IMG/VR virus record: IMGVR_UViG_3300029309_000030
Location: 1-59,587 of that record
Reading direction: 5' to 3' (one strand)
Source: a virus
Taxonomy: Duplodnaviria > Caudoviricetes
DNA: 59,587 bases
Below the pieces are notes generated by a model that was not told the DNA's origin, did no database searches, and worked only from the letters and a program-made list of their open reading frames with translations. This document shows, piece after piece, positions 11,283 through 58,738 of this stretch (within the stretch, counting starts at the first letter, position 1; each line of letters opens with the position of its first letter). Made by a program: the position numbers and the translations under genes.

Positions 11283-11291
11283 GTCAGTCCC

Positions 11292-15869: not shown

Positions 15870-15913
15870 CTGCTCTCCCCCTAACTAAGCCATGATACGA
15901 TACATGATTAAAT

Positions 15914-16198: not shown

Positions 16199-16207
16199 TC
16201 AACCACC

Positions 16208-16381
16208 TCAAGATGTGGTTACGAATATGTAGATGTTACCAAGTATAACTTGAGGGTCGGCAGAAACACATGTGTTGCCACCTATAGCAGTACTTATTGC
16301 ATTTTGTATGGTAGTTTTTCCACTACTAGTGTTAAAGTCTGCCTGTGCAAACGGGCCAAGTATCGTTACTGTTGTTGCCAA
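16208..16381 (-). CDS. Small virion-module protein (57 aa, below track cutoff)
   Basis: TTG start after AGGTGA RBS: MATTVTILGPFAQADFNTSSGKTTIQNAISTAIGGNTCVSADPQVILGNIYIFVTTS; fills the operon gap exactly. Confidence 0.6.
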   Translation of the reverse strand: MATTVTILGPFAQADFNTSSGKTTIQNAISTAIGGNTCVSADPQVILGNIYIFVTTS

Positions 16382-16386
16382 TCAAA

Positions 16387-17193: not shown

Positions 17194-17194
17194 A

Positions 17195-17947: not shown

Positions 17948-18399
17948 TATCTTCTACTCCCTATGACTGTTAGTATTACATCTGTATTGTCGTTTACTGG
18001 TACCGCTTCGTAAGGCGTTGCGTTACTAGTTACGATAATTAGTTTAGTTTCATCTGCGTCTATATATACAAATGGTTGGATATTGAACTTTTCGTTGGTC
18101 GATAGCCCTCGTAAATCAAATGCTCCTTGGTCTGGTCCATTTCTTTTGAATAAACTATTATCCGTCTGAGTGGGAACACCCCGTTTACCCCTAGAAATTA
18201 TGTTAGCACTAAAGACTTCCCGCAAGCCCAATCTGCTGATAGATATAGTCAGTTCTTTTTGAAAATGGGCATCTGTTCTACTAAACACACCTTGGTCAGC
18301 AGTACTCGCATCAGTATGTGCAGGTATATCTATAGTCAACATTGTCAATTTGCCAATGTTACTGGTATCAGTCACAGTGAAATTAGTTAGTTCTGGCAT
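17947..18399 (-). CDS. Putative virion protein (paralog family member 2)
   Basis: NIGKLTMLT...LTVIGSRR termini. Confidence 0.55.
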   Translation of the reverse strand: MPELTNFTVTDTSNIGKLTMLTIDIPAHTDASTADQGVFSRTDAHFQKELTISISRLGLREVFSANIISRGKRGVPTQTDNSLFKRNGPDQGAFDLRGLSTNEKFNIQPFVYIDADETKLIIVTSNATPYEAVPVNDNTDVILTVIGSRR

Positions 18400-18411
18400 T
18401 CAGTCACCGCC

Positions 18412-18693
18412 TTAGTTGCGGCTCCCCATGGCAAACCATGTGCCGTCTTGACCGTTAACATTCTGTATAACCAAACTGCTTCCGTTGATTAAAGCAAAAA
18501 CTCCGTCAACACCTGCACCTGTCCCAGCAGTTGAACTACCAGCGTTAGCACCACATGCTACTATATTTACAAGTAAACCAGAAAGGTCTATACTACCACC
18601 AGCATCGCTGCCACCGTTAGTAAATGTTCCAGTAACCATCAATAAGTTACCTAATGTGTGAGGTCTTTCATCTATTGTGCTTGCGAATGCCAT
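18412..18693 (-). CDS. Putative virion protein (paralog family member 1, minimal form)
   Basis: 93 aa; TLGNLLMVTG...WFAMGSRN. Confidence 0.6.
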   Translation of the reverse strand: MAFASTIDERPHTLGNLLMVTGTFTNGGSDAGGSIDLSGLLVNIVACGANAGSSTAGTGAGVDGVFALINGSSLVIQNVNGQDGTWFAMGSRN

Positions 18694-19142
18694 TATTCTT
18701 CAACTCCGTCTGTCTCTACGATAGGGTCCTCGACTATAGTCTCTTCTACCACTTCTTCTGCTACAGGCTCAGGAGTAACCTTCTCAACCACTGGCTCTGG
18801 TGCCGGTGGATTGAGTGTAATCTTTACCTTGTCCAAGAGTTTTGCTTTAGTAGCATACCCTTTGATAGATACTCCTTTGTCCTTTAACCATGCTGTGATA
18901 TCCTTCTTAGTCCAGCCTTCATCAGGTAGTCCGTCGCCACCTTCGTCTACTGTGATACCTACTCCCGGTGTAGTCTTAGCATCGCCCTCGACTACGAACA
19001 CTGTTGGGTTAGTGCAGATAGCAGTACGGTAAGCGTCTAGCCATTCTTGAGAAACCTCTTTGACTTCTCTTCTTATCCAGACTTCTTTAGTACCCGGTAC
19101 TTTCCTATAGGCGTAGTTACCTATGTATGTAACTGTAGGCAC
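18693..19142 (-). CDS. Hypothetical protein with small helical (HeH/SAP-like) domain and acidic tail
   Basis: WTKKDITAWLKDKGV...ATKAKLL motif, a type often found just downstream of MCP genes. Confidence 0.55.
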   Translation of the reverse strand: MPTVTYIGNYAYRKVPGTKEVWIRREVKEVSQEWLDAYRTAICTNPTVFVVEGDAKTTPGVGITVDEGGDGLPDEGWTKKDITAWLKDKGVSIKGYATKAKLLDKVKITLNPPAPEPVVEKVTPEPVAEEVVEETIVEDPIVETDGVEE

Positions 19143-19152
19143 TTAAAGCACC

Positions 19153-19638
19153 TCAGTTAAGTAATAGTACTGTAATCTGACAAACTTGATTTGCGACTTC
19201 TGAATCTATGATAAGTGCCGGAAGAGTTCCTGAGCCAGTGGTTGGGGCTACTGTTGCATCTGCACCTGCCGTTCCTGTGTTATTCATTGTAATCGTTACA
19301 TCTTTAGCCGCAGTTGCCGAAGCGTATCCGACAATTCCAAGAATCTTTGATGCGCCCGCTGTAAAAACTAGCGGTTCAACAGTTGCTGCTTGAACAATAT
19401 TCACTGTGAAAGTGACCATTCTTAATCCGCCGTTAGCCAACCCGTCAGCGTTACTTGCAGTAAATCCTGTAAGGCTTCCGGGGTATGAACCACCGGAATT
19501 ACCGCTTAACCAACTTGTTTCGTCAACTGGGGTTCCTGTTCTCATATCAATATCAGCGAGAATATCAACAAGTGTAAAATCACTGTCTGCTACTTTGATA
19601 CTCAATCCTTTTTCTGTTTTGGTTGTTGTTGCTACCAT
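19153..19638 (-). CDS. Putative capsid decoration/cement protein
   Basis: 161 aa, Thr/Ala/Gly-rich, immediately downstream of the MCP; GGAGATGA RBS. Confidence 0.5.
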   Translation of the reverse strand: MVATTTKTEKGLSIKVADSDFTLVDILADIDMRTGTPVDETSWLSGNSGGSYPGSLTGFTASNADGLANGGLRMVTFTVNIVQAATVEPLVFTAGASKILGIVGYASATAAKDVTITMNNTGTAGADATVAPTTGSGTLPALIIDSEVANQVCQITVLLLN

Positions 19639-19675
19639 ATCTAATCATCTCCTAAAATATTTTCTCCATTAATCC

Positions 19676-20809
19676 TCACTGTAAGTCACGGATAGAACCT
19701 TGACCTCCAAAGAAAGTTGTCCATACTTCACCCATTGTTCGGTAAAGTCCCTCTTGACCGAGGCGGTTAATGGCGAATGGGTCTCCGGTTTCGATACCAG
19801 ATTCAAAGTATTGTGTTGGCTTTGCAGTGCTAAAGTATAGGTAGTCAGTATCAAGCATGTAAATTCTGCTGATGCCGTCGCTTGCCATCTCCTTGGTTGG
19901 GATAATTGGAACACCGTTGTAAGTTGCTACGATGAAACCTGCTTCCATACCCGGAACACCTTTTACACCGTTGAATGTCGGAACTACTCTCTTTTCTTCC
20001 ATGAACCTTTGTTGGCTTTGTAGAAGTTGTTGTATTCTCATCAAGGTGTCATATCCAGTTAGCATGACCTTTGGATTTCCACCACGAGTCCAGATAAGTC
20101 TAAACATCTCATCTAAGTGGTCAAGTGATAGAGTTCTGTTAGTAGAACTGCTGTTAGCGGAATCCTCAGCAAATGCCCAAGAGTTCCCGGCTGCACTTCT
20201 GTCGATTGAGTAAAGGTCTTCGTCACCAGCATCGTAGTGTGTTCCAGATGTCATTGAGTTGTTACCAGTGGTAATTCTGTCAAGTGATTCAAAGTCGTTA
20301 CCTGCTACAGTTGTTACATCCTCAGTTAGCATGTCGTTGATGTGCTCTGCGTGGTGCTTACCCATCTCTTCTTTCAAGACTGAACGAATGTCACCTAGAC
20401 CGTCGTCTTTGTCGTTTAGAAAAATTGCTACCTCAGACATATCGAATGAGTGAGCGATGGTTTTAGGCTTTGCTGCAACATTCTGGAAAGTAGGTTTGGT
20501 TGTGTCTGGTAGTGTACCGTTCTCTGCAATTCCGCCACCAACAGTCTTGGAAGGCTTAGCAGTAACTACTCTCCATCCACTTCTGTCCCATGGTTTCTTT
20601 GGTAGAATTGAAAATGCGTTGAATTCTTGGTTTAGTTGTGACCAAACTTTTCTACCGTAGATTGCTTGGTATGTTCCTGCTGTTGTGCTTAGCAATGGTG
20701 CGTCAGCCTTTAACAGTTCTGAGCCAGTGTATGAGTATCCCATACTTTGTCCAGCACCGTAGTAGTAACGCTCCATGTCATTGATTGTTCTCATGTAATT
20801 TCTTGCCAT
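19676..20809 (-). CDS. Major capsid protein (HK97 fold)
   Basis: 377 aa directly after protease/scaffold. Motifs GGIAENGTLP, KTIAHSFDMSE, FESLDRI, ATYNGVPII fit HK97-type MCPs; strong GGAGATGA RBS. Confidence 0.85.
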   Translation of the reverse strand: MARNYMRTINDMERYYYGAGQSMGYSYTGSELLKADAPLLSTTAGTYQAIYGRKVWSQLNQEFNAFSILPKKPWDRSGWRVVTAKPSKTVGGGIAENGTLPDTTKPTFQNVAAKPKTIAHSFDMSEVAIFLNDKDDGLGDIRSVLKEEMGKHHAEHINDMLTEDVTTVAGNDFESLDRITTGNNSMTSGTHYDAGDEDLYSIDRSAAGNSWAFAEDSANSSSTNRTLSLDHLDEMFRLIWTRGGNPKVMLTGYDTLMRIQQLLQSQQRFMEEKRVVPTFNGVKGVPGMEAGFIVATYNGVPIIPTKEMASDGISRIYMLDTDYLYFSTAKPTQYFESGIETGDPFAINRLGQEGLYRTMGEVWTTFFGGQGSIRDLQ

Positions 20810-25200: not shown

Positions 25201-28155
25201 ACGAGTCCCTTTGATATTCTGTCTCTCCCACGCTTCCATCTGGTTATCTAACTGATTCAACTCACCCTGTAAAGTCAGTCTTTCACCTTGTGTCAGACTA
25301 CCAGATTCTAACAACTCTTCTATTTCGCCAGCCCTATCCATCAGACCTTCAAAATACTGTGACTCTTCCTCAGCCGCCATCGGTCTTTGAGACGCAGACA
25401 GCCTCCTAGAAACCTGACCTTCTGGATTTAGTTCTCTAGGTATACCAAGATTAGTCATCATACCTATATCTACTGGTTGACCATCTGGACCGAGAACTTG
25501 GTTACCGATAGTGTGCTGTCTAAGTTTGTCATCCAAGTCAACAATCATTCTTTCTTTAGCCTTCGGTAACTCTTGTAGTTCTCCCATTAACAGATTTTTT
25601 TCAGTTGACAGCGCTCTATTAAACTCAATGAGTTCTTCATCTGTTAAGTTAGGTGGGGCTTTTCTTTGGTTTAGACTTTCAAGTTCTCGCTCTATCCGAC
25701 TTCTGGAGTTTTCTATACTATCCTCTATTTGTTGTTTTTCTTCTTTGATGTCGAACTCACCAAGTGTTTCAAATTTAGCACTGAGGTCGTTTACTAAATC
25801 ATTGTGGTCAGCAAGTGTAGAACGCAAGCCCGTTCCTTCTTGTAAAAGACCGGGGTCTTTGTAACTGATTACTCTTCTAAGCGGCTCCATTGGGTTATTA
25901 CCCATACCAACCATAGTGCCTATAGTGTGGTAACTATGAGCAGCACTTTGTTCAACTTCGTCGTTGTTGAATGTTCCTTGGTGTATATTGACCATTCTTA
26001 GATGGTCGGGAGTTTCACCACGCAGTTTGTCATGAGCATCTTTGGCAGCATCATCGTCACCTGATTCTCTCGCAGCGTGATAATCACTGTGTACCTCGTT
26101 ACTGTATTTACCATCAGTTCCACTAGAGTGTCTTTCGGTGTGAGCATTCTGACCGCCTGCACCTTTTATGCCTGAAGAAGCAACAGCACTCTGTGGGTTC
26201 ATCAAGGAACTAGGTCGGGCAAAGTCACCTCTGAACGCTGTAGTTTTGCCCTCGGCATCGGGAAACAAATTCAACCCACCCTGTCCAAATGGTCCAAAGA
26301 AAGCATCCATGCTCTTACCGCCGTCAATATGCTGTATACCTATTCTATTGCCAGTCTTTTCAAAGAATAAACTCACTTCTTTGTCACCCATCATGGTTCT
26401 TTCCGTCGTAGGCTCAAATTCTCCGACTTGTTCTCCATCTGCACCGATGTCTTGTAGGTAATCGCCAAAACGCTCTCTCAAAGCCTGAGAGTCTGCTGAT
26501 TGTTCTGTCTCTACAGGTCTGTAAGCCAGAGTATGATGATGTAGCAAATTGAATAATTCATTGGCTTTCTTACCCATCCCGCCTACTTGGAAAGGTCTTT
26601 TCCAATGAGTAGCGAGTGTATCATGGTCATCAAGATAATCATAGTGGTCAGGGTGCATATGAGTGCCATAATTTATCGCACCGTGATTTCGAGCGACCCT
26701 GCCTGCCGCCCTCATCTTGATAGACTCGTCTCGCCTCTTTTTCATAATTTCATCGAGTTCTTCTTGGCTAAATGGCGAATCGGCCTTTTTCCAAGCAGGT
26801 CCCCAAACAGGATGTTCCCCGTCTTCATGTAACTTACCTTCACTATCAATATTGAGCATATGTCTTAGCATAGGTTCACTAAGGTAATTCTGTTTCTTAC
26901 CGTTACCAATAGATTGTTTTCTCCAATGTATTTCGTTTCTCTTATCGTCGAAATAAGGGACATGGCTATAACTAAAAGCATCAGCATCTGGATTATACAT
27001 TCTATACATTTTGTTATAATGGTCTACTGCTCTTTCCCAGTCTCTTTTCTTTCCAAGACTACTATCTTGCATTGCCATCCAATTGTGAACTCTTTGAATA
27101 TTCTCAGTATCTTCTGGCAAACGCTTTGGTTTGATTGCTAAAGGATGCTGAGAGTGTTCAGGGACTCTAGTCCACCAGTCGTATAAACCAGAAAATCTTT
27201 GTTGGAAATTGCGTTTTAGTCTGGGTAAAAAATCTTGTATTTGTGGGCTGCTATCAAAAGTCAAAAGTCTAGTGCTATCTGCCCCTCCATAGTCATACAA
27301 GTGCCGATAGGCTTTTTCTCTTTCTTCTGGACTAAACCATTCCATGCCAAGAAAGTAATCCATAAAGCCTAGACTCTGTTGCCAATCTCTTTTGGCATCT
27401 TCCATATGAATTTGCTTCAACTCATGGTCAATTTCTGCCTCCGATAAACCTTGTTCTTTTCTATCTGCTCGAACTTTATCGACTATATCTCGATTACTTT
27501 CTTCCCACCTTTTGTAGTGATTAAGATAGAGTTGATGATTAGTGGCATCTTCGTTTAACTCACCGAGATGCAAAGGTGTTTGTAAAAAACTGTGGTCATT
27601 CTTTGCGGCGTGTTCTTCCCAAGCAAGTTCTTTCTTAGCGTCTATTTGGCTTTGAGAATCGCTGCCAGCCTCGTTTGCTAAATAAAAATCTGCTAAGATT
27701 TGATGATAATTACCGTGTAAAGGATTGAAACCTTGACCTAACGGGTTGCGTGCTCGATAGGGGTCGTTTGCCTCGCCATTAATTACCGTGAAGGGTCTAC
27801 CAGAATATCTTAAATCGTCTGCGTTAGGTGGAACAACTCTGTCTGAATTGATAGATGGGTTGTCGGCTAATTCCATACCAGCAGTATAATCTATTTCAAA
27901 GCCCATTTGTTGCTCACTAATGTTGGTATGCTTTTGAGGAGCCCACTTGTCTTCATCTTCTTGTTTCTGTATAACAGAACTAAACATGTTCAGCAAGCCT
28001 TTGTCATGACCTGATAACTCGTAACCCTTTCGCTCAGCGCTAACGGCTGCAAAGTAAAACTCAGCACCAGCGTCTGCTTTACCAATGCCATCTAATAGAG
28101 ACTTAACGAACACACCTCGTGTTCTATCAAGAGTCTCTAATGGCCCTTCTCTCAA
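22291..28155 (-). CDS. Giant head-module protein with C-terminal ATP-dependent DNA ligase-like fold (apparently catalytically degenerate)
   Basis: 1954 aa. WIVSVMPEGERG (motif I-like), YYIFDVL (IIIa), VLLRDAKSTY...KWVMLK (IV/V) followed by an OB-like region. Confidence 0.65.
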   Translation of the reverse strand: MREGPLETLDRTRGVFVKSLLDGIGKADAGAEFYFAAVSAERKGYELSGHDKGLLNMFSSVIQKQEDEDKWAPQKHTNISEQQMGFEIDYTAGMELADNPSINSDRVVPPNADDLRYSGRPFTVINGEANDPYRARNPLGQGFNPLHGNYHQILADFYLANEAGSDSQSQIDAKKELAWEEHAAKNDHSFLQTPLHLGELNEDATNHQLYLNHYKRWEESNRDIVDKVRADRKEQGLSEAEIDHELKQIHMEDAKRDWQQSLGFMDYFLGMEWFSPEEREKAYRHLYDYGGADSTRLLTFDSSPQIQDFLPRLKRNFQQRFSGLYDWWTRVPEHSQHPLAIKPKRLPEDTENIQRVHNWMAMQDSSLGKKRDWERAVDHYNKMYRMYNPDADAFSYSHVPYFDDKRNEIHWRKQSIGNGKKQNYLSEPMLRHMLNIDSEGKLHEDGEHPVWGPAWKKADSPFSQEELDEIMKKRRDESIKMRAAGRVARNHGAINYGTHMHPDHYDYLDDHDTLATHWKRPFQVGGMGKKANELFNLLHHHTLAYRPVETEQSADSQALRERFGDYLQDIGADGEQVGEFEPTTERTMMGDKEVSLFFEKTGNRIGIQHIDGGKSMDAFFGPFGQGGLNLFPDAEGKTTAFRGDFARPSSLMNPQSAVASSGIKGAGGQNAHTERHSSGTDGKYSNEVHSDYHAARESGDDDAAKDAHDKLRGETPDHLRMVNIHQGTFNNDEVEQSAAHSYHTIGTMVGMGNNPMEPLRRVISYKDPGLLQEGTGLRSTLADHNDLVNDLSAKFETLGEFDIKEEKQQIEDSIENSRSRIERELESLNQRKAPPNLTDEELIEFNRALSTEKNLLMGELQELPKAKERMIVDLDDKLRQHTIGNQVLGPDGQPVDIGMMTNLGIPRELNPEGQVSRRLSASQRPMAAEEESQYFEGLMDRAGEIEELLESGSLTQGERLTLQGELNQLDNQMEAWERQNIKGTRYYGGKGHHNTLQRKLDADIKAIADAGEHLYRMLGQTPEGRTQLAQIFNPNADHETAAANMRMWAAMSNDFLQRASEDSHDIMTLGNTKFEVKGQSKPTTDFATGMKTTVSNFGSAFDNNDVFNYVSGLDAISQIQNSAIMQVDPEQAQALLEQNEAANRQYEDSFMDSLGLDKSDNRLRQTVRDYVDNTLLPRLNENKPIPSVMTGRQLFSQMYPDIDIDAMLTDLNNRNRRGKPDAKEFAKKVEQIYAVLGSKGSEERNRQTGIGFQLAHNLDDRFEEDLHTKRSSFGSSTKKDARFEDVKHRVIQTLNSLITNFSDVEVPQEITQTKSGLGRVKVGPNGHDTHTVKSLYNSGGFKHEFGDDFSPNFNYYIGSDGTPKITMVDPNEDNTQALVPLTSHFWDKMISVAAPAWQSLLYGPEHQEARQSLAINERRAPQFKSGEFTRTLNQKPRSATKSDIGLADLTNPDIIRKDLGPKVPTLQPMHRIFELDDLEHLRGFTGDWIVSVMPEGERGFVKKDDDKITSPTFDLSDEDKENFKKVADEDYHADVIKTKDGYYIFDVLEYDDKETHEIPIDDRIKILRGAMEGIDNIHLPSASDTRLTDDAGLKLAVDDLRKDHGSVLLRDAKSTYMAGELRHPKWVMLKPGKDVVLRVLDRRGNGPYTYRLGTGPITQAEKIGNRAVESEGETYMDVGVAFNSKEKYNKGDHVRVNAANVTKVESVDEETVYTLTGSEIIGEAEGEGLVSRETLSLLAKSLDSQWMCEVHRAKSGIRVVMPQGDVVYKATESQGHWSVHSPLSSNNYLIRLSESQRVYWSPIAGALLKANLDIAESDNEDKAEVHESKGDGKPLIPPKKVKDSDWKIPDKRMVMVKGLQLIEKLLKSGVGAVGQSSTGTMGLGIDYATPIESPMGPTNLNDEKTMPDYDNKKRPGEESTIEPETEDQEDKKHLVIPVSNGVLEIDSDKAVFHT

Positions 28156-28171
28156 CTACATCACCAGCCGC

Positions 28172-28567
28172 TTAATTTAGACGGCTGGCTAATCGGTCAA
28201 TAGACTTCTTTAGTTCTGACAAGGTTGGACCGTCACCACCTTTGAAGTTCTCAAGTGCACCTGTTGTGCTAAACGCTGTAGGATAGTAAGGTGACTCTCT
28301 TGTTAGTACATCGCTGTTCTCTGAGATTGCACCTTTATTAGCGACATCTTGTACATCGTTAAGCAATACATTGTTGGTGTTATAATAAGCATTAGGTACA
28401 CCAGAAGGCTGTGCTTCAAATCGAGCATATCCTACAGTAGCCCCTTCGGGTTGACTTGTATAATCTGGCATACTACCTTCTTTCTTAGCGATACGACTTT
28501 CTAAGTTCTGCGCTGCTTTTAGCAGGTCATACACTTCTTTACTTGCTTGTTCAAATCTTGGCTTCAT
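28172..28567 (-). CDS. Hypothetical head-module protein
   Basis: 131 aa in the portal-protease operon. Confidence 0.65.
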   Translation of the reverse strand: MKPRFEQASKEVYDLLKAAQNLESRIAKKEGSMPDYTSQPEGATVGYARFEAQPSGVPNAYYNTNNVLLNDVQDVANKGAISENSDVLTRESPYYPTAFSTTGALENFKGGDGPTLSELKKSIDRLASRLN

Positions 28568-51799: not shown

Positions 51800-52339
51800 C
51801 TAGATATTATCGTAGACCGCATCGGTAGGCAGGCCGTGATAATCAGCGTAGTCTTCACTTAGTTCATGGCTCCAAGGTTGCTTGCTTTCTTTGTCGTAAG
51901 CATAAACAAAATGCTGGTCTCCATCTAAGTTGGTGCGTATGTGAGGGCGTTCATGAGCACCGTCGAGCACACCCTCGTCAACTAATTTGTTCCAATAACC
52001 AGCCGAATGCCTCTCAACATTGGTTACATGTGTGCCATCTAATTCGTGTTCAAAATGTGCGTGTCCTTGGTCAATCATGTCTTGAATATACTGACGAGAC
52101 TTGTTCTGTCCCCTAACTGGTTCAGCCATCTCAAAATTATTTATCAGCAAACTGTTTAGATAATAATCAGGTCTCATGGTGCCACGAGCCATGCCGTCTT
52201 CTGACTGCCACATGAACCCGCCCATCTGGTCAAGATAGGGCAACATCTTGTAGTGACGACTCTGCTGCATAGGTGGTGGATTGTCATCCGTATAGACAGG
52301 AGCCTTGAGCAAACGCCAAGCCTGCTCGAAAGGGCTCAT
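51800..52339 (-). CDS. Leader-bearing protein (MSPFEQAWRLLKA) with possible GNAT acetyltransferase fold
   Basis: LLINNFEMAEPVRGQNKSR and SAGYWNKL resemble GNAT motifs A and B; start ATG 52339. Confidence 0.5.
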   Translation of the reverse strand: MSPFEQAWRLLKAPVYTDDNPPPMQQSRHYKMLPYLDQMGGFMWQSEDGMARGTMRPDYYLNSLLINNFEMAEPVRGQNKSRQYIQDMIDQGHAHFEHELDGTHVTNVERHSAGYWNKLVDEGVLDGAHERPHIRTNLDGDQHFVYAYDKESKQPWSHELSEDYADYHGLPTDAVYDNI

Positions 52340-52750
52340 GTCTAAACCCATGAGCGAACAGGACAAAAAGCCATCGGTTTGTTTGGTATACCAAAATTTT
52401 TCTAAAAATTTTTTTTGGTCGAGCGCCGTGTGTGGTTAAAAGGAGTCTAAACCCACATCTAAACCCAAGCCTCCGCCTAAGCGTCTAAACCCAGCGCCGT
52501 CTAAACCCGGCGTGGGTTGCAGACTAGGCGAACAGGCTCGCAGTACATCGGTCTATAGAGAAAAGGGTTTAGGCTGAAACCTAAACCCTAACGCAGTCAC
52601 TCGTTCTATAGAACGCTGCCCGTCGCTGCTGTCGGGCTCGCAGTGTTGCATTCTATAGAACGCTTCACTCATGCGTATCTAACTAAGCGGAAATTCGAGC
52701 GGGCTCCATGATAGTCATTTACAGGGGGCTAAACGCTGTACTGCGAGCCA
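52340..52750. repeat. Repeat-rich non-coding strand-switch region
   Basis: CTAAACCC copies near 52340, 52445, 52458, 52483, 52499, 52580; inverted repeat 52564-52589; GGCTCGCAGT at 52535 and 52635 and its inverse at 52740; TCTATAGAACGCT twice; A/T tracts at about 52393-52416. Confidence 0.75.
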
Positions 52751-52764
52751 TTCGGCTGGTTCGG

Positions 52765-52796
52765 TATATAAAGAACTAATAAAGGTTAGGTAGTGA
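52765..52796 (+). promoter_or_regulatory. Conserved early promoter, copy 1
   Basis: TATATAAAGAACTAATAAAGG...GG...TGA. Confidence 0.7.
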
Positions 52797-52905
52797 GAAT
52801 CACCACATCAACCAACCAACGAACCAACCAACCCGACTTGGTCGGGTCGGGTCGGCTCAGTTTTGAGCCGGTTCGCTGGGATTGGTTCGCAGTGTGGTGG
52901 TTTTC
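52795..52905 (+). ncRNA. Putative 111-nt highly structured RNA
   Basis: Begins 30 nt after the TATA start; 14-bp terminal stem with G-U pairs, nested stems, two terminal hairpins; no credible ORF. Confidence 0.6.
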
Positions 52906-52925
52906 TGCTCGACCATCCGGTTGAG

Positions 52926-52957
52926 TATATAAAGAACCAATAAAGAATAGGTGCTGA
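52926..52957 (+). promoter_or_regulatory. Conserved early promoter, copy 2
   Basis: TATATAAAGAACCAATAAAGAATAGGTGCTGA. Confidence 0.7.
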
Positions 52958-53024
52958 CTAACCTCGGTTTGGTCGGAGAGCGCCTCCGAACCCGACCCAC
53001 TACCCAACCTCGCCACGCTCAGTC
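52956..53024 (+). ncRNA. Putative ~69-nt RNA
   Basis: Begins 30 nt after the TATA start; GACT/AGTC ends, TCGGAG/CTCCGA hairpin. Confidence 0.35.
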
Positions 53025-53255
53025 ATTATCATGCGTTCTTATTCACATAAGCAAACGCTTTACTGCTAAGCAATTCATATTATTATCATATTATTATTAC
53101 AATTATTACAAGTATTACACTATTACATTCTATAATATATATCTCTAGGGAGTTACTGTAATCATCATAACTATTCCAATTATGACTATTGAACACCTTG
53201 AAAACATCATAAACGGCTTACTGCGAGCCGACTCAATTGTAATATTCACATTCAC

Positions 53256-53287
53256 TATATAAAGAACCAATAAAGATAAGGAAGTGA
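53256..53287 (+). promoter_or_regulatory. Conserved early promoter, copy 3
   Basis: TATATAAAGAACCAATAAAGATAAGGAAGTGA. Confidence 0.75.
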
Positions 53288-53451
53288 TTGACTTGTATAG
53301 AATCAACCAACACGGAGTAGCAATAATGATATGTTGCGAAAACGACATGGAATTAGACTGCCAAATTGATTGGCGTGGTGTCTACGATTACTGGCGATGC
53401 CGAACCTGTTTCAAAAGGATTACAGACCGTGAAGAAGAATTCAATATATAA
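53284..53451 (+). CDS. Small Cys-rich protein (about 55 aa)
   Basis: ...ICCENDMELDCQIDWRGVYDYWRCRTCFKRITDREEEFNI; stop codon lies inside the next promoter's TATA box. Confidence 0.55.
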   Translation: MIDLYRINQHGVAIMICCENDMELDCQIDWRGVYDYWRCRTCFKRITDREEEFNI

Positions 53452-53476
53452 AGAACCAATAAAGATAAGGAAGTGA
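53445..53476 (+). promoter_or_regulatory. Conserved early promoter, copy 4
   Basis: TATATAAAGAACCAATAAAGATAAGGAAGTGA. Confidence 0.75.
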
Positions 53477-53796
53477 AAAATATGGATAATGTAAGAACAG
53501 TACCTGCACCTAACAGCGAGCGAGGCAAAGAATACATTGTAGAAATAAGAACATGGTTTGACAAAGTCAACGGTAACAGTTATTTCTCAGCAAGGATATA
53601 CGATTTGAGAATGAACTTACTCAAGGTAGTGCCGTTCCAATACGGATACGGTAGCCATCCGAGGGATGTCTGTGTGGCTCACATTCAAGCAATGAACAAA
53701 GTTCATCAGCACAAATTTGAGATATCAAGAAAGACATACTTCAATGAAATGAAGTCACTAAAGAGAGACTGCGTAGCATTTGGAGAGGAAGAATGA
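53473..53796 (+). CDS. Hypothetical early protein
   Basis: WFDKVNGNSYFSARI...PFQYGYG; directly behind promoter copy 4. Confidence 0.7.
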   Translation: MKNMDNVRTVPAPNSERGKEYIVEIRTWFDKVNGNSYFSARIYDLRMNLLKVVPFQYGYGSHPRDVCVAHIQAMNKVHQHKFEISRKTYFNEMKSLKRDCVAFGEEE

Positions 53797-53930
53797 TGAC
53801 ACACAAACAAATCTTGACTAATTCATGGCAGAACGAATCGGAGTATAGAGAATATTGGATTTGCCATCGCTGTGGAAATGCAGAATTTGTAAAAATATGG
53901 AATCAAAGAGGAACTATAAACACATTTTGA
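53793..53930 (+). CDS. Small hypothetical protein (45 aa, CxxC)
   Basis: MMTHKQILTNSWQNESEYREYWICHRCGNAEFVKIWNQRGTINTF; ATGA coupling, GGAGAGG RBS. Confidence 0.5.
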   Translation: MMTHKQILTNSWQNESEYREYWICHRCGNAEFVKIWNQRGTINTF

Positions 53931-53936
53931 ATTCAA

Positions 53937-53968
53937 TATATAAAGAACCAATAAAGAAAAGGAGATGA
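53937..53968 (+). promoter_or_regulatory. Conserved early promoter, copy 5
   Basis: TATATAAAGAACCAATAAAGAAAAGGAGATGA. Confidence 0.75.
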
Positions 53969-53974
53969 AAAAAT

Positions 53975-54412
53975 ATGGAACTGAAACACCTAAGAGCATT
54001 TAACATTGAATTGACAAACGACTTTCAAAATAACTGTCGCACTATAACGATTCTCGATAACCGACATCACCACCGAGTCGAACTGACGACATGGGATTGG
54101 GGTCTAAGTCTTAGAGGCATTGCAGACAGATGGTTCAAATATATGGATATTGAAATTGAATCCTTTACTTACCTAAAAGATGAACATTTGGTATATCTAA
54201 CCAAAGATTTCAGAACCCAAATTTATGACGAGAAGGCTTTACACATACCACAATGGATTGGAGGCACTCTCATTCAAATAGTTATTGACTTCCCAAGTGG
54301 AAAGGTTGAGATTCTTGCAGAAAGAGAGCCGTCAAAGATATACAGAACTGATTGTATCTATCAAGAAAATTACATAAAAGAAAAAACTGAGTTTGATGAA
54401 TGGCATTTATGA
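53975..54412 (+). CDS. Hypothetical early protein
   Basis: 145 aa behind promoter copy 5. Confidence 0.65.
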   Translation: MELKHLRAFNIELTNDFQNNCRTITILDNRHHHRVELTTWDWGLSLRGIADRWFKYMDIEIESFTYLKDEHLVYLTKDFRTQIYDEKALHIPQWIGGTLIQIVIDFPSGKVEILAEREPSKIYRTDCIYQENYIKEKTEFDEWHL

Positions 54413-54419
54413 AATTCAC

Positions 54420-54451
54420 TATATAAAGAACCAATAAAGAAAAGGAGATGA
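54420..54451 (+). promoter_or_regulatory. Conserved early promoter, copy 6
   Basis: TATATAAAGAACCAATAAAGAAAAGGAGATGA. Confidence 0.75.
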
Positions 54452-54457
54452 ACAAAC

Positions 54458-54691
54458 ATGACATTTGACCATGATATAGAACCAATTGACGGCTTTCACC
54501 CTAAGTATAAATCATTAGCATATTATGAAATCGAACCGCACTACGGAAGTTATATCTTAACTTCGCCTGCTAAAGAAGGTTCGATTTTAATGAGCGAGGA
54601 TGATGCAAGGTGGATGTTTGAAGATAGATTCGATGACAGATATGGCTACTTCGTAGATGATTACCTAGACCATTTTGAAACAGAAGAATGA
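54458..54691 (+). CDS. Hypothetical acidic early protein
   Basis: 77 aa behind promoter copy 6. Confidence 0.65.
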   Translation: MTFDHDIEPIDGFHPKYKSLAYYEIEPHYGSYILTSPAKEGSILMSEDDARWMFEDRFDDRYGYFVDDYLDHFETEE

Positions 54692-54698
54692 GATTCAA

Positions 54699-54730
54699 TA
54701 TATAAAGAACCAATAAAGAAAAGGAGATGA
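54699..54730 (+). promoter_or_regulatory. Conserved early promoter, copy 7
   Basis: TATATAAAGAACCAATAAAGAAAAGGAGATGA. Confidence 0.75.
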
Positions 54731-55053
54731 GAAAAATGAAAATACAAGAATTTGAATACAAGAATGACAGCAAAGCAGCAATAAAAAAACTAAGGCAATT
54801 ATGCAAAGAAAAAGAAACTAAAGAAGTCGGAGTCCGAATGAAAACAGATGTGTGGGATTCAGTCAATGTACACATACCGATTAAATACGCTTGTAACTAT
54901 ATCAACGCAGTAGTCAGTGATGTTAACGAGCATAGGAATTGGGAATGGGTACAGTCAGCAGATTTGAAAATAAACATTTCAACAAGTCGGTTTTTTGTAT
55001 ATGTCAATGCATCATGTGAAGTAACTCGCATGCCAAAGAATGAAGAGGAGTGA
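54727..55053 (+). CDS. Hypothetical early protein
   Basis: 108 aa behind promoter copy 7. Confidence 0.65.
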   Translation: MRKMKIQEFEYKNDSKAAIKKLRQLCKEKETKEVGVRMKTDVWDSVNVHIPIKYACNYINAVVSDVNEHRNWEWVQSADLKINISTSRFFVYVNASCEVTRMPKNEEE

Positions 55054-55058
55054 ATCAA

Positions 55059-55205
55059 ATGTTCGAAGATATCAAAGACGCTGTGCTAGACATGACACTA
55101 TCACACTTGAACACAGCACTACATTATCACATCATCGAATTGATGGAATCAATCAATCAGACTCTTGACGAGTTTCAAGAATTAGCGGAGACAATAGGTG
55201 AATAA
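55059..55205 (+). CDS. Small helical protein (48 aa)
   Basis: MFEDIKDAVLDMTLSHLNTALHYHIIELMESINQTLDEFQELAETIGE; GAGGAGTGA RBS. Confidence 0.55.
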   Translation: MFEDIKDAVLDMTLSHLNTALHYHIIELMESINQTLDEFQELAETIGE

Positions 55206-55207
55206 AT

Positions 55208-55576
55208 ATGACAGAACCATGTAAATGCGGAAGCACAGAACACGAAGCAGTCACAAGTAAAGGACTAGGAGGCATGACTACTATTACATCATGCCCTCTT
55301 GAAATAGCGAAGGTACATGAAGCGATAAAAAAACCCGTTAGAATGTATAGTCGTATCAGTTCTAGTGGTGTCAAGCATTACCACGATGAAGAAGGTTGGC
55401 AAGAAAGATATCAAGCAGATGTAGATAAAGCAGAAGCGAGATTCTTTGATGAGTCAAGTTACACAATACTACACCTTCATTATCAATTAGATATGAGCCA
55501 AAAAGGTTTCAGCAATATCACGCCACAGCACTTAGAAGCAGCCAAACTTAGAGATATAGAATTAGGAGAGGAATAA
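55208..55576 (+). CDS. Hypothetical early protein
   Basis: 122 aa; AGGTGA RBS. Confidence 0.65.
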   Translation: MTEPCKCGSTEHEAVTSKGLGGMTTITSCPLEIAKVHEAIKKPVRMYSRISSSGVKHYHDEEGWQERYQADVDKAEARFFDESSYTILHLHYQLDMSQKGFSNITPQHLEAAKLRDIELGEE

Positions 55577-55577
55577 A

Positions 55578-55826
55578 ATGACATGGAGAACACAATACTG
55601 TTACAGCAAAGAAGAAGGAATAACGCTAATGAATGGCAATCATATCATAGGTGGTAGATACCCTCCTCAAGCGAAAGGATTGACAGCGAAATACGGAGAA
55701 GTTACTCACTTTCCCACTGTTAGAGGATTACTCAAGTATTTGAGAACTCAATACCCTCAATGGGTTTGGAGGTCTAAATTAACACACTACTACGGCACTA
55801 TTGTCGAGATACAAACGAAAATGTAG
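55578..55826 (+). CDS. Hypothetical early protein
   Basis: 82 aa; GGAGAGG RBS. Confidence 0.6.
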   Translation: MTWRTQYCYSKEEGITLMNGNHIIGGRYPPQAKGLTAKYGEVTHFPTVRGLLKYLRTQYPQWVWRSKLTHYYGTIVEIQTKM

Positions 55827-55833
55827 ATTTGAA

Positions 55834-55865
55834 TATATAAAGAACCAATAAAGATAAGGAGATGA
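55834..55865 (+). promoter_or_regulatory. Conserved early promoter, copy 8
   Basis: TATATAAAGAACCAATAAAGATAAGGAGATGA. Confidence 0.75.
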
Positions 55866-56821
55866 AAATTATGGCAAAAAGCAAGAGAAAATACAACCCA
55901 CAGAAATCAAAAGAATGGAATGACAAATGCGAAAAAGAATGGTTTGACTCATTCGCTGAGGCAATTCAGACAGGTAATCTTCCGTGGCAAAAGCCGTGGA
56001 AGCCTAACGGTACTGGATTTGACGGCATCCCAATGAACTTAGCAAGCAAGAAAGAGTATCGAGGTGGTAACACCATGAGGCTTATGATTGAAGCAATGTT
56101 TAGAGGTTGGACTGACCTAAGATTCGCTACAAGAAAGCAACTAATCAACGCAGGACTTTCTATTAAAGGGCTCAAAAGTGGTACTGGTTGCATCGTCAAG
56201 TATGCCGAGCGAAAGCCATACGAAGAAGAGCAAGACGACGGCACTATCGAAATCAAATACCGATGGATTAGAAAGTGGTATGAGGTATTCAACATTGAAC
56301 AATGTGAGGACTACGAAGCACCAAAGCCCGACCCGACAGCAGAAGTCAAGCCGACTCATGATATGATGAAGCACTTTAACGACTACATCAAGAACGAAGG
56401 TATCACCTTCAAGACTGGTGGCAACCGGGCTTTCTATCGAAGCAGTGCTGACCTTATCCAACTACCTACCCATGACTCTTTCATCACTCCAATCGGTGAG
56501 GTCATGACAGCATTCCACGAAGCAGGACATTCAACTGGTCATACAAGCAGATTGAAGCGGCCACTAGGCAACGGTTTCGGCACCAAAGCATACGCCTTTG
56601 AAGAACTGATAGCGGAACTATCATCCATGCTTGTAGTCATGCGACTCGGTGGCGAATTCGTACCGGATTCAGTACAAGAAGAGAACGCTAACAATGTGGC
56701 TTATCTACAGTCATGGTTGAAATCCTGTGAGGACAAAGATGAGGCTCTAGGTCTAGCATTCCACGAAGCCCAAAAAGCGGCTGACTACATGATTGAATCA
56801 ATCAAAAAAGGAGAGGAATAA
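55862..56821 (+). CDS. ardC: ArdC-like antirestriction/ssDNA-binding protein with zincin-like domain
   Basis: LPWQKPW, P.N..S.K.YRG.N, VFNIEQ (ArdC N-domain); RAFY...D.IQLP, FHEAGHSTGH..RL.R, YAFEELIAE, YLQSWL (metallopeptidase-like domain). Confidence 0.85.
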   Translation: MKIMAKSKRKYNPQKSKEWNDKCEKEWFDSFAEAIQTGNLPWQKPWKPNGTGFDGIPMNLASKKEYRGGNTMRLMIEAMFRGWTDLRFATRKQLINAGLSIKGLKSGTGCIVKYAERKPYEEEQDDGTIEIKYRWIRKWYEVFNIEQCEDYEAPKPDPTAEVKPTHDMMKHFNDYIKNEGITFKTGGNRAFYRSSADLIQLPTHDSFITPIGEVMTAFHEAGHSTGHTSRLKRPLGNGFGTKAYAFEELIAELSSMLVVMRLGGEFVPDSVQEENANNVAYLQSWLKSCEDKDEALGLAFHEAQKAADYMIESIKKGEE

Positions 56822-56823
56822 AT

Positions 56824-57009
56824 ATGAATATAGAACAAAATGAGATTTTCAATGGCAGACACAAAGAACTAGACGAGAACAAATTTAACAGCATCATAAA
56901 AGACATTGAGGATTTTGCTGAATTGGCAAAGTATAGCGATACGGCTCTTTGGCGACTAATGAATATCATGATGGTCGCAAAGGTAGAATATGAAATAGTA
57001 AGGAGATGA
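56824..57009 (+). CDS. Small hypothetical protein
   Basis: 61 aa; GGAGAGG RBS. Confidence 0.55.
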   Translation: MNIEQNEIFNGRHKELDENKFNSIIKDIEDFAELAKYSDTALWRLMNIMMVAKVEYEIVRR

Positions 57010-57015
57010 AGAATA

Positions 57016-57246
57016 ATGACAAAAATAAGATGTGCAAAGTGCTGTAAAATAACAGATGTAGATGATGAAGATATGTGGCAAGGAGAATTAGAGGATGTGG
57101 CCGATGGTCACCTATCCTTTAGATTCACACATTATTGTGAGAACGAAATAAGAGAAGGTGAGGACTGGGAAGAATGCGGTCACACAATCGAAGTCATAAG
57201 ATACGCTAAACTACAAGACTACAGGGATATTGAACAGGAGGAATAA
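57016..57246 (+). CDS. Small zinc-binding protein
   Basis: CAKC...YC...ECGH; GGAGATGA RBS. Confidence 0.6.
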   Translation: MTKIRCAKCCKITDVDDEDMWQGELEDVADGHLSFRFTHYCENEIREGEDWEECGHTIEVIRYAKLQDYRDIEQEE

Positions 57247-57248
57247 AT

Positions 57249-57578
57249 ATGAGTGTTAATACTAAAGATAATTACCTAAGTTATGAGATACCGAAAGGCG
57301 CAACTGACTACCATGATGACCATGAGAACCACAAGTATTACTGTATAGATGATGACAGATATGATGATAACGACATCTACGAACAAGAACACTACGACTT
57401 TGAAACACTCGGAAAATACTTAGAGTACATCAAGTTCTTCAACAATTCATTCACAGATGTAGAGCCTCTTCTTGAGAAGGCAATATTGTGGGCTAATGGT
57501 GACGAGAGTATTGTTACAGAAAGAATGAACCACATGAAGAGACTTATGGAGAGACGACAATGGAGGCTCAAAGTATGA
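57249..57578 (+). CDS. Hypothetical acidic protein
   Basis: 109 aa; GGAGG RBS. Confidence 0.6.
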   Translation: MSVNTKDNYLSYEIPKGATDYHDDHENHKYYCIDDDRYDDNDIYEQEHYDFETLGKYLEYIKFFNNSFTDVEPLLEKAILWANGDESIVTERMNHMKRLMERRQWRLKV

Positions 57579-57889
57579 AAATTGGAACGGATGAATTATG
57601 GTTGACAGACGAAGAGAAAGGATGGATGCTACATGCTATTTATTTAGGTGAGGATAATATGATATTATTTTCAGAAAAAACATGGAAATGGATTGCCGAG
57701 CCGATGGTAAATACTCCAATACATCAACAATGCAATTTCTATCAACAATATATTAAATTCGGAGGCTTAGATGATTTGACATACAATAATGAAGAGGCTT
57801 TGAAGAAAACTATTGAATATGCCAACGACAAAATCACGAAGATTTTTCGATTCATTGAATCGTTTTTTGAACTCTACAACCAAGGTTGA
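57560..57889 (+). CDS. Hypothetical protein
   Basis: 109 aa; likely start MKIGTD (ATGA coupling). Confidence 0.6.
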   Translation: MEAQSMKIGTDELWLTDEEKGWMLHAIYLGEDNMILFSEKTWKWIAEPMVNTPIHQQCNFYQQYIKFGGLDDLTYNNEEALKKTIEYANDKITKIFRFIESFFELYNQG

Positions 57890-57890
57890 C

Positions 57891-57922
57891 TATATAAAGA
57901 ACCAATAAAGAAAGGGAAGTGA
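57891..57922 (+). promoter_or_regulatory. Conserved early promoter, copy 9
   Basis: TATATAAAGAACCAATAAAGAAAGGGAAGTGA. Confidence 0.75.
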
Positions 57923-58167
57923 GAAAAATGGAAATAACATTACAAGAACTAAACGAAATAATCGAGCAAGCAAAGAACGAAGCAGAAGTAACCATGCGTA
58001 GCAAGATAGCGAAGTATATCAATCAAGGTTACACTACCAACGGAATACTAAACCTGCTTAGCGAATTTAACCTTGTTACAGGTTACAGACATAAGAATCA
58101 AATTCAGATAGACGGCTTCAACTCAGATAAGCCAGTCATGATAATCAATCCGAGGGATGAAGAATGA
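57919..58167 (+). CDS. Hypothetical protein
   Basis: 82 aa behind promoter copy 9. Confidence 0.6.
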   Translation: MRKMEITLQELNEIIEQAKNEAEVTMRSKIAKYINQGYTTNGILNLLSEFNLVTGYRHKNQIQIDGFNSDKPVMIINPRDEE

Positions 58168-58253
58168 CACCATGTAATATTTGTAATGGGTGGAATGATT
58201 CCAAAAACCAAACATGTAGTAATTGTGGTTGTCTAACGGAGGAAGAAAGATGA
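58164..58253 (+). CDS. Micro zinc-finger protein (29 aa)
   Basis: MTPCNICNGWNDSKNQTCSNCGCLTEEER; ATGA-coupled on both sides. Confidence 0.5.
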   Translation: MTPCNICNGWNDSKNQTCSNCGCLTEEER

Positions 58254-58381
58254 TTATTTTTTGCCCTACATGCCATTCAGCAATTACATATCTTAATGCT
58301 CGGAAGAGCATTACATTTGAACCATGCGAATGTATGGAGAAAATTGGATTAACTGAACCTATTATGAGTGATGAAGTATGA
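58250..58381 (+). CDS. Small Cys-rich protein (43 aa)
   Basis: MIIFCPTCHSAITYLNARKSITFEPCECMEKIG...; GGAGG RBS; ATGA coupling. Confidence 0.5.
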   Translation: MIIFCPTCHSAITYLNARKSITFEPCECMEKIGLTEPIMSDEV

Positions 58382-58548
58382 AGTCGGAAACAATACAAGC
58401 ACTCTACGATGATTACAAGGAATATCAAGAATGGTATTATCAAAACCACGGATGGGTCATGGAAGAAACTTTCCGTGAATATGTCCAACGCTGTATTGAC
58501 AACGACGAACTAGAATTACTTAGACAAATAGAAAACGGGAGAGATTGA
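58378..58548 (+). CDS. Small hypothetical protein (56 aa)
   Basis: MKSETIQALYDDYKEYQEWYY...; ATGA coupling. Confidence 0.5.
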   Translation: MKSETIQALYDDYKEYQEWYYQNHGWVMEETFREYVQRCIDNDELELLRQIENGRD

Positions 58549-58549
58549 A

Positions 58550-58705
58550 ATGGCTATGATTATTGAAAACTTTGAAACTGACAGATATAATAAAGAACAA
58601 ATTATTTCGATATTGAAACTATATGTAGAACAAACTGATTGGCTTTATCTTACAAGAGAAGAGGCAATGGAAAACGGTTGGACTTACGAGGATGCTCAAA
58701 TTTGA
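58550..58705 (+). CDS. Small hypothetical protein (51 aa)
   Basis: MAMIIENFETDRYNKEQIISILKLY...; GGGAGAG RBS; ends just before promoter copy 10. Confidence 0.5.
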   Translation: MAMIIENFETDRYNKEQIISILKLYVEQTDWLYLTREEAMENGWTYEDAQI

Positions 58706-58706
58706 G

Positions 58707-58738
58707 TATATAAAGAACTAACAAAGAAAGGGAAGTGA
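58707..58738 (+). promoter_or_regulatory. Conserved early promoter, copy 10
   Basis: TATATAAAGAACTAACAAAGAAAGGGAAGTGA. Confidence 0.7.

Follow-up and report, generated by a model that had tools for sequence, protein, structure and literature searches.

What is the role of a GC-rich, strongly base-paired element of 111 nt that lies between the first two of ten promoter copies, at the threshold of the early genes of a tailed virus? The element is found in IMGVR_UViG_3300029309_000030, a linear viral record of IMG/VR whose entire 59,587-nt length is referred to here as the window (CheckV estimates a completeness of 56% for these 59.6 kb). An original prediction, made from the letters of the DNA, described it as a Y-shaped, promoter-driven small RNA and the first early transcript of the virus, which might serve as a decoy, a regulator, or a replication primer. 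The structure at 52795-52905 is real and exceptional, and overall the element is probably a small noncoding RNA or leader.

Leftward genes run from 52341 to base 1 of the window and include those for capsid, protease, portal, and a T4-type large terminase, and small rightward genes begin at about 53300. In a collection of 50,697 phage records the capsid protein matched 11, and all 11 are archaeal viruses, with no bacteriophage among them; they comprise the Haloarcula viruses HVTV-1, HCTV-1, and HCTV-5 (31-33% identity) together with viruses of methanogens. The missing half of the genome is supplied by a relative, G002, that shares the promoter motif and encodes a family-B polymerase (PolB) for which 15/15 among the best matches listed are haloviruses, an RFC-like ATPase, a weak match to the primase large subunit, a PD-(D/E)XK nuclease, SNF2, Cpn60, and an ORF of 5,494 aa. 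The G002 contig starts within the early genes. Excerpts of Philosof et al. 2017 (PMC5434244) describe magroviruses as tailed viruses of ~100 kb from the surface ocean that were assigned to marine group II archaea and that carry halovirus-related capsid genes, PolB, an archaeo-eukaryotic primase, a chaperonin, and an SNF2 helicase. The window virus and G002 are like magroviruses in their set of capsid, PolB, primase-like, chaperonin, and SNF2 genes. By gene content and best matches this looks like a magrovirus-like archaeal tailed virus and, as judged from its genes, it is not a bacteriophage. Magroviruses rank with the most abundant archaeal viruses in the surface ocean and, to our knowledge, are known only from assemblies, with none in culture.

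A 20-mer, TATATAAAGAACNAATAAAG, has 10 matches in the window from 52765 to 58726, all on the + strand, where 0.04 would be expected by chance. The TATA-box-form octamer TATATAAA is present in 10/10 copies, with GTTATAAA or TTTATAAA in its place in relatives, and since the genes of the virus are of archaeal type, the ten-copy motif reads as an archaeal TATA box. Transcription in archaea starts ~23 nt after the TATA octamer, at a purine following a pyrimidine. An alignment of the promoter copies shows T30, G31, and A32 to be invariant in 10/10, and as this T/G-A lies ~23 nt past the octamer, the predicted +1 falls on G52795, which is the first base of the terminal stem. The element was said to start 30 nt after promoter copy 1, and this is correct when counted from the first base of that copy (52765 to 52795). 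In relatives, inspection places the helix-opening purine at the 22nd or 23rd nt past the octamer. All 10 motif copies are oriented toward rightward ORFs at a fixed distance; copies 3-10 are followed by ORFs and copies 1 and 2 by noncoding DNA, and the element fills the gap between the latter two. The TATA boxes are near-symmetric, and the direction of the promoters was deduced from the downstream ORFs alone.

Archaeal polymerases stop at oligo-T signals, and a run of four T lies at the element's end. In a variant from a metagenome contig, a C>T change at 52905 produces a run of six T and keeps the terminal pair as G-U. The T-run is not present after the equivalent elements of two more distant relatives, G003 and G013, and since it is also only 4 long, a discrete RNA would be clade-specific at best. 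The start and end assigned in the original prediction are plausible given the archaeal TATA geometry and the T-run, and both stand as predicted positions. A bacterial reading, in which TATATAA would be a -10 box and AAGGAG a Shine-Dalgarno sequence, was dropped on the evidence of the archaeal-virus genes, and no sigma-70-type promoter overlaps the motif. At G003-P2, G013-P2, and G009 an AAAGGAG-type block adjoins the TATA box and a separate ribosome-binding site lies further downstream, which indicates that the block is a promoter-proximal element.

Table 1. Coordinates of the element, its predicted parts, and the surrounding control region in the window.
Feature	Coordinates	Strand	Description
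Promoter copy 1 of 10	52765-52794	+	Octamer TATATAAA (52765-52772), conserved proximal block, invariant T/G-A at motif positions 30-32
Structured noncoding element, 111 nt	52795-52905	+	Fold, z-score, rank 1/11,896, 6 variants, once per genome
Terminal clamp, 5' arm GAGAATCACCACAT	52795-52808	+	Conserved core is the first 10 nt
Hairpin 1, ACCCGAC-ttg-GTCGGGT	52831-52847	+	Variable
Hairpin 2, 12-bp form CGGGTCGGCTCA-gttt-TGAGCCGGTTCG	52848-52875	+	Conserved; RNAalifold consensus
Small 3' hairpin CTGgGAttggtTCgCAG	52876-52892	+	Overlaps a GGYTCGCAGT copy (52884-52893)
Terminal clamp, 3' arm GTGTGGTGGTTTTC	52892-52905	+	Includes T-run 52901-52904
Promoter copy 2	52926-52955	+	Begins 21 nt past the element's end
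Left context	52340-52669		Anchor GCCGTGTGTGGTTAAAAGGAG (52425-52445); five GTCTAAACCC repeats (repeat families D2 and D3 in the region)
Left context, further repeats	52340-52669		Palindromic AGGGTTTAGG/CCTAAACCCT; three CGCAGT..TTCTATAGAA repeats
AT-rich tract with ATTATTAC-type repeats	53060-53150		Between promoter copies 2 and 3; repeat families D6 and D16

The + strand of 52795-52905 (GAGAATCACC...GGTGGTTTTC) has a minimum free energy (MFE) of -58.8 kcal/mol compared with a mean of -33.4 for 200 dinucleotide shuffles, none of which equals its stability (z -7.39); the extensive base pairing described in the original prediction is thereby borne out. Because the two halves of the element are unlike in composition, the first CA-rich and the second GT-rich, each half was shuffled separately, and the window element still has a z-score of -7.0. 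In a scan of both contig strands in full, comprising 11,896 windows of 111 nt, the locus takes the top rank by raw energy as well as by composition-corrected residual. The 111-nt stretches after the ten predicted starts give z -6.2 for P1, a weak -2.0 for P2, and values from -0.36 to +0.50 for P3-P10. Every pairing listed in the original prediction is present in the MFE fold, including the 14-bp terminal stem with its three G-U pairs, the AACCAA/TTGGTT, CCA/TGG, and CGAACC/GGTTCG stems, the ACCCGAC-ttg-GTCGGGT hairpin, and a GGCTCA-gttt-TGAGCC hairpin (52854-52869). The contrast in composition is also as described, with a GC content of 0.56 in the element versus 0.35-0.39 in the early region to its right.

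The argument from G-U pairs for the + strand holds for one part of the structure. The strand bias is confined to the terminal stem, where 14/14 pairs form on the + strand and 11/14 on the minus strand, and it does not extend to the element as a whole, since the minus strand read as RNA folds to -59.0 kcal/mol (z -7.73) and tops the whole-contig window scan. The numbers of G-U pairs are similar in each strand's own best fold, and as single-stranded DNA the two strands fold with energies of -31.6 and -31.5 (z -6.8 and -6.0).

The sole ORF through the element encodes 43 aa from a GTG start (52793-52924). Among the six variants of the element described below, this ORF has an in-frame stop in 2/6 and a frameshift in 1/6, and its GTG start is present in 1/6, the window itself; a small protein was rejected on the grounds that the ORF is broken or shifted in 3/6, and the view that the element holds no credible ORF agrees with this lack of conservation. 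ARAGORN finds 0 tRNA or tmRNA genes in the 59,587 bases, in keeping with the remark that the fold is not a tRNA cloverleaf. The element matches no Rfam family: the covariance models of Rfam 15 (pRNA, 6S, Y RNA, riboswitches, and self-cleaving ribozymes included) have 0 matches at gathering score in the whole window, and at E up to 10 the region 52300-53300 has 2 chance-level matches (10.9 and 10.7 bits), neither on the element.

Several more specific identities were rejected. An intrinsic terminator is a compact GC-rich hairpin with a loop of 3-8 nt followed by a T-run; a terminator scanner flags only an internal stretch (52833-52855), and the "loop" closed by the terminal clamp would be 83 nt. 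C/D-box sRNAs carry a C box (RUGAUGA) and a D box (CUGA) near their paired termini, and neither TGATGA nor CTGA is found in the window element. A pseudoknot between the GUUU loop and an AAAC of the CA tract does not agree with the variants, as the window and L041 have no AAAC and the change in the loop of L016 is unmatched. Tan1, an abundant noncoding RNA of MGII, is 229 nt long and host-encoded according to excerpts of its description (PMC5069720), and was set aside on both counts.

Close variants of the element were gathered by scanning for two promoter copies 130-165 nt apart, leaving the intervening sequence unconstrained. Related loci made up 2/7 of those found in IMG/VR and 6/53 of those in metagenomes, and metagenome contigs of 4 DNA runs contributed a few further variants. 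Counting the window, there are six distinct versions with ~87% identity, and all six beat their shuffles on the + strand (z -3.25 to -8.01), also with the halves shuffled separately (z -3.1 to -7.5). The consensus common to all six consists of an end clamp of about 10-12 bp, the 12-bp hairpin 2, and the small 3' hairpin, with hairpin 1 weak. The 5' arm of the clamp has a probability of being unpaired of <=0.11 in 6/6 variants, and its 10-bp core is invariant save for a single G-to-A change. In hairpin 2, 97.2% of cells are paired; five pairs vary one-sidedly and one, at the base, changes in a compensatory manner from C-G to U-A.

The remainder of the fold is less constant. Of the window's 46 pairs, 44 are kept in L041 and 41 in L017, and 29-31 in L016, L035, and L031. 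Hairpin 1 is found in the window, L041, and L017, with other sequence instead in L016, L035, and L031, and this hairpin decays in 3/6 variants along with the CGAACC/GGTTCG and AACCAA/TTGGTT stems. The CA-rich 5' strand has a probability of being unpaired of 0.15-0.22 in the window and L041 and 0.67-0.77 in L016, L035, and L031, and the interior of the element is rich in indels. The junction that gave the predicted RNA its Y shape is not conserved, being lost in 3/6 variants. Extra cassettes of promoter and ORF follow the element in L017, L031/L040, and L035.

Covariation, which had been named as a check on the structure, is not significant among these six sequences of ~87% identity, with 1 compensatory pair and with 290/500 shuffles reaching the observed values. 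By hand count, one-sided changes keep the pair ~12 times and break it ~4 times, which is roughly what transitions opposite G/U-rich partners would produce, so no selection is needed to account for it. As to the strand, 34-36 of 36 consensus pairs form on + versus 27-30 on -, and the RNAalifold consensus energy is -34.4 on + versus -30.3 kcal/mol on -; the consensus modestly favors the + strand, which is clearly more stable in 3/6 variants. Searched with a covariance model, 402 kb of related sequence yields a single copy in each genome and no paralogues. The original prediction is supported as to the noncoding nature of the element, its extensive pairing, and its position directly behind promoter copy 1, the first of ten. 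The GGYTCGCAGT motif within the element has further copies at 52535 and 52635 (+) and inverted copies at 52740 and 53220, and since the conserved 3' half holds a copy of a DNA motif that occurs in both orientations, its conservation may reflect a DNA-binding protein.

The 21-nt anchor to the left of the promoters is conserved in 10 IMG/VR contigs, four of which extend as far as the first early promoter. Noncoding, GC-rich DNA of 166 and 126 nt separates this promoter (GTTATAAA...) from a second promoter copy in G003 and G013; behind the first promoter of G004 and G012 (TTTATAAA...) there are 103 and 101 nt of GC-rich DNA, then a ribosome-binding site and the first ORF. These segments (GC 0.52-0.73, 101-166 nt) are unalignable to the window element, and all are strongly folded on the sense strand, with z -5.46 in G003, -4.78 in G013, -3.92 in G004, and -3.75 in G012 and 0/150 shuffles as stable. 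Strand preference is mixed, the + strand being better in G003 and G012 and the minus strand in G013 and G004. By inspection, the predicted start is the first base of a helix in 5/5 lineages, and the 3' strand of G013 has the form of a canonical four-run G-tract. Across this virus group the first early promoter recurrently has a structured, GC-rich module immediately behind it, and the recurrence of this module in distant lineages is the strongest argument for a selected fold. Since the structure in G004 and G012 is the 5' leader of the first early ORF, a cis-acting leader is favored over a trans-acting RNA. CA-rich leaders also follow the promoters of coding cassettes in relatives.

The 1-kb control region has no blastn match in the 50,697 phage records, and a scan of IMG/VR with the promoter 20-mer gave 6 single-match loci, of which L009, L011, and L012 are relatives without the control region and the others are unrelated. 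The tandem-promoter pattern occurs at 24 loci in GTDB genomes, none apparently related as judged by record title only. Matches to the neighboring 246-aa and 188-aa genes and to their alignment are confined to 3 contigs, and a scan with a 23-mer of L018 returned only the contig of L018 itself. The anchor pattern is missing from G005-G008, and the ends of G005 have no recognizable control region.

We propose that the element is the structured, noncoding, end-sealed first module of the early transcription unit and that it acts at the level of RNA, a reading to which we give a probability of roughly 45%. From the TATA-box promoter P1, a host-type RNA polymerase would begin transcription at G52795, ~23 nt past the octamer. 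The 5'-terminal nucleotides (GAGAAUCACC) would later pair with the last ones made (GGUGGUUUUC), so that both ends of an RNA of ~110 nt would be locked in a 10-14-bp clamp around the conserved 12-bp hairpin and a variable interior. The 5' end of the first transcript would in this way be sealed in a helix at once, and the sealed ends would protect the RNA from exonucleases. At the T-run 52901-52904 the polymerase would stop in part, with the remaining transcripts reading on into the next cassette. As the T-run and a fresh promoter follow the element in the window clade, partial release is probable there, and part of the transcripts would probably be set free as an exonuclease-resistant small RNA of ~110 nt. 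In relatives with an ORF directly behind, the equivalent structure would be a 5' leader. The function shared by all would be that of a 5'-sealed, stabilizing or regulatory leader for the first transcripts on the incoming genome. A function of the RNA in trans, as the decoy or regulator suggested in the original prediction, is possible, if unsupported. Its fullest form would have magroviruses open infection with a dedicated structured RNA from the first TATA-box promoter, in this clade as an autonomous gene of ~110 nt from promoter to T-run, with the RNA accumulating and sponging a host RNA-binding or defense factor or else serving as a replication switch; we regard this as improbable.

A less likely but serious rival reading is that the element works as DNA, as part of a replication origin or of a genome-end or packaging region. 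Its inverted repeats and C-rich/G-rich blocks would then adopt hairpin, cruciform, or G-rich structures or serve as binding sites for proteins, and the flanking promoters would open or prime the origin, as in T7 or T4. The T7 origin consists of tandem promoters and an AT-rich tract, and T4 origins of a promoter and an unwinding element; a promoter followed by an AT-rich tract is present at this locus too, where the repeat tract 53060-53150 after promoter 2 could be the unwinding region should the region be an origin. The element itself, being GC-rich and stable, has properties contrary to those of an unwinding element. It sits in a 900-bp hub with five GTCTAAACCC repeats, three TTCTATAGAA-type repeats, and GGYTCGCAGT in both orientations (one inside the element), both strands fold equally, as DNA and as RNA, and the virus family has its own PolB, clamp-loader-like, and primase-like genes; the four-run G-tract seen by inspection on the 3' strand of G013 would also be in keeping with a role as DNA. 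Cumulative GC skew turns at 52-53 kb, but this turn coincides with the switch in gene direction and is thus not independent evidence for an origin. The contigs of many relatives end inside the region (L017, L018, L035, L041, G010, and G011), and G009 and G012, which are 98% complete, end 199 and 827 nt after the anchor; however, breaks are expected both at a 10-copy repeat and at variable cassettes, and the contigs of the window, L016, G003, and G004 run through the region. A function at the level of DNA also leaves unexplained why the helix starts at the predicted transcript start in 5/5 lineages and why the 14-bp clamp is perfect on the + strand only.

The strand assigned to that RNA could also be the wrong one, although we consider it very doubtful that a minus-strand RNA is the functional product, either as a leader or as an antisense RNA begun leftward at the TATA box of promoter copy 2 or in the AT-rich tract and running toward the operon at 52341. 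Such an RNA would have the fold that tops the contig scan (-59.0 kcal/mol, z -7.73). The reverse complement of TATATAAAG is CTTTATATA, which we take to match the archaeal box-A form, and a leftward start 23 nt from this CTTTATATA box would fall at ~52903, on the right edge of the element. The archaeal virus HFTV1 makes prominent antisense RNAs according to excerpts of its description (PMC12542753). The clamp, however, has 3 mismatches on the minus strand, fewer of the 36 consensus pairs form there (27-30, against 34-36) with a weaker consensus energy, the + strand is clearly the more stable in 3/6 variants, and 10/10 motif copies face rightward ORFs at a fixed distance. It is likewise highly improbable that the element has no function of its own and is a decayed or recombined promoter cassette, kept between conserved promoters, in which a CA-rich leader and its GT-rich complement pair by accident. 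Promoter-bounded cassettes have been gained and lost among relatives (L017, L031/L040, and L035), the promoters of their coding cassettes are followed by CA-rich leaders, the interior is indel-rich, and covariation is not significant, all of which would fit with such an origin. An accident of this kind would nevertheless have to be more stable than half-preserving shuffles in 6/6 variants (z -3.1 to -7.5 on the + strand), be kept at the same place in all six, have structured equivalents of unrelated sequence in 4 other lineages, and be the single most stable window in 59.6 kb.

In the main texts of the magrovirus papers searched, the word promoter does not occur, and no text searched pairs magrovirus with TATA or with the spelling non-coding; the promoter cassettes and the element appear to be undescribed for these viruses. 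The locus offers a concrete promoter model, in the form of a ten-copy TATA-box cassette with a predicted start, together with a candidate first transcript and a compact control hub of anchor, repeats, and AT-rich tract, in which the origin or genome end may lie. Should the RNA prove real, it would serve as a specific metatranscriptome probe for early magrovirus infection and would represent a new family of structured RNAs encoded by archaeal viruses; if it also acted in trans as a dedicated first RNA, it would be an archaeal-virus counterpart of the Pol III small RNAs of animal viruses and the first noncoding RNA family of magroviruses. If the element instead acts as DNA, it indicates where the origin or terminus of these genomes lies.

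How does the element compare with structured RNAs and early regions known from other viruses? Adenovirus VA RNA and EBV EBER come from animal viruses, are transcribed by Pol III, and have defined protein partners. The element would be like them in being a short, structured, noncoding viral RNA with paired 5' and 3' ends, its own promoter, and an oligo-U end, these being predicted features in the present case, whereas its polymerase would be archaeal and it has no sequence or Rfam relation to either. The pRNA of phi29 (RF00044) is a first early transcript of ~120-170 nt with paired ends, a three-way junction, and two hairpins. The window's own fold likewise has paired ends, a three-way junction, and two hairpins, but it has no Rfam match at E up to 10, the junction decays in 3/6 variants, and the loops UUG and GUUU are not mutually complementary. 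We rejected membership in the phi29-type pRNAs on the unconserved junction and the noncomplementary loops; a virus with a T4-type large terminase also does not need an RNA-bridged packaging motor.

The early region of T7 has tandem promoters without ORFs, an RNase III-type structured leader, and an AT-rich tract. The present locus likewise has tandem early promoters 130-330 nt apart in noncoding DNA, a structured segment ahead of the first ORF, and, behind a promoter, an AT-rich tract, the difference being that T7 is a bacteriophage with sigma-70 and T7-RNAP promoters and that the promoters here are of the TATA-box type. The marine crAss-like phage phi14:2 transcribes intergenic DNA close to where its early region begins, in the rightward direction, from the earliest time point on, and at a very high level, according to excerpts of the preprint (bioRxiv 10.1101/2020.03.07.982082). 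The likeness to phi14:2 lies in early intergenic noncoding RNAs, whose function the same excerpts (bioRxiv 10.1101/2020.03.07.982082) give as undetermined; the phi14:2 RNAs differ, as far as these excerpts describe them, in being long, in being made by a virion RNA polymerase, and in having no common promoter motif, and they have no sequence relation to the element. While a member of none of the families tested, the element appears to resemble most the promoter-proximal structured RNAs of viruses.

The early region is built as a series of cassettes, each delimited by a TATA-box promoter unit of approximately 40 nt, both in the window (10 copies, 52765-58726) and in the relatives L016, G002, G003, and G013. 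The sequence TATATAA often contains the stop codon of the preceding ORF. Whole cassettes are the unit of difference among relatives, which suggests that recombination occurs at these promoter repeats. An additional promoter and ORF cassette lies 3' of the structured 111-nt non-coding element in L017, L031/L040, and L035. The second non-coding cassette of the window contains a GC-rich hairpin (TCGGAG-agcgc-CTCCGA) followed by an AT-rich tract containing two copies of TCATATTATTA and repeats of ATTATTAC, and its conservation is approximately 94% in L031/L040 and in L035.

Features of the window, with positions and strand
Feature	Position	Strand	Details
Open-ended 1,859-aa ORF	2-5578	-	Left edge of window
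Stable 111-nt windows	27051-27201, 28081-28201	+	Residual z -3.9 to -5.7
First leftward gene family	51800-52341	-	1 copy, adjoining the hub
Dense repeat set	52340-52669		GTCTAAACCC x5; palindromic GGGTTTAGG/CCTAAACCC; TTCTATAGAA x3; GGYTCGCAGT in both orientations
21-nt anchor	52425-52445		Kept across lineages despite differing repeat units
Second non-coding cassette	52956-53255		Promoter 2 to promoter 3
ArdC-N and zincin-like metallopeptidase gene	55862-56821	+	Early gene; Pfam E 2e-17 and 3e-29

To the left of the element, the repeats and the anchor together have the appearance of an origin, or else of a master regulatory site. In relatives, the repeat units are CTAAACT, GTAAAGCC, and GTAAACC. 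The control region around the element also holds the contig ends of many relatives (L017/L034, L018, L035, L041, G009, G010, G011, and G012). Two contigs that end within it, 199 and 827 nt past the anchor, were judged 98% complete. These ends could be either assembly breaks at repeats or a physical genome end. The first leftward genes of the window, L016, L017, L018, and G005 form a paralogue family of variable copy number, with 3 or 4 copies in L016 and L017, and share the N-terminal motif M-x-P-F-E-Q-A-W-x-L-L-K.

In stability, the control region is followed by the 111-nt windows at 27051-27201 and 28081-28201, which rank next in the contig and fall within or at the start of the 1,954-aa gene, itself encoded on the opposite strand. 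In the more distant relative G013 (L210), the 3' strand of the element in the first early cassette carries four G-runs of 3-4 (GGGG..GGGG.GGG..GGG) facing a long C-run strand, an arrangement that matches the canonical pattern of a G-quadruplex/i-motif; its counterpart in the window is only GGTCGGGTCGGGTCGG.

Another relative, G002, encodes a 5,494-aa ORF (4264-20748) without a Pfam match, and the open-ended ORF at the left edge of the window may be a portion of the equivalent gene. The ArdC-N gene of the early region has a predicted function of the anti-restriction type, and its carrier looks like an archaeal virus.
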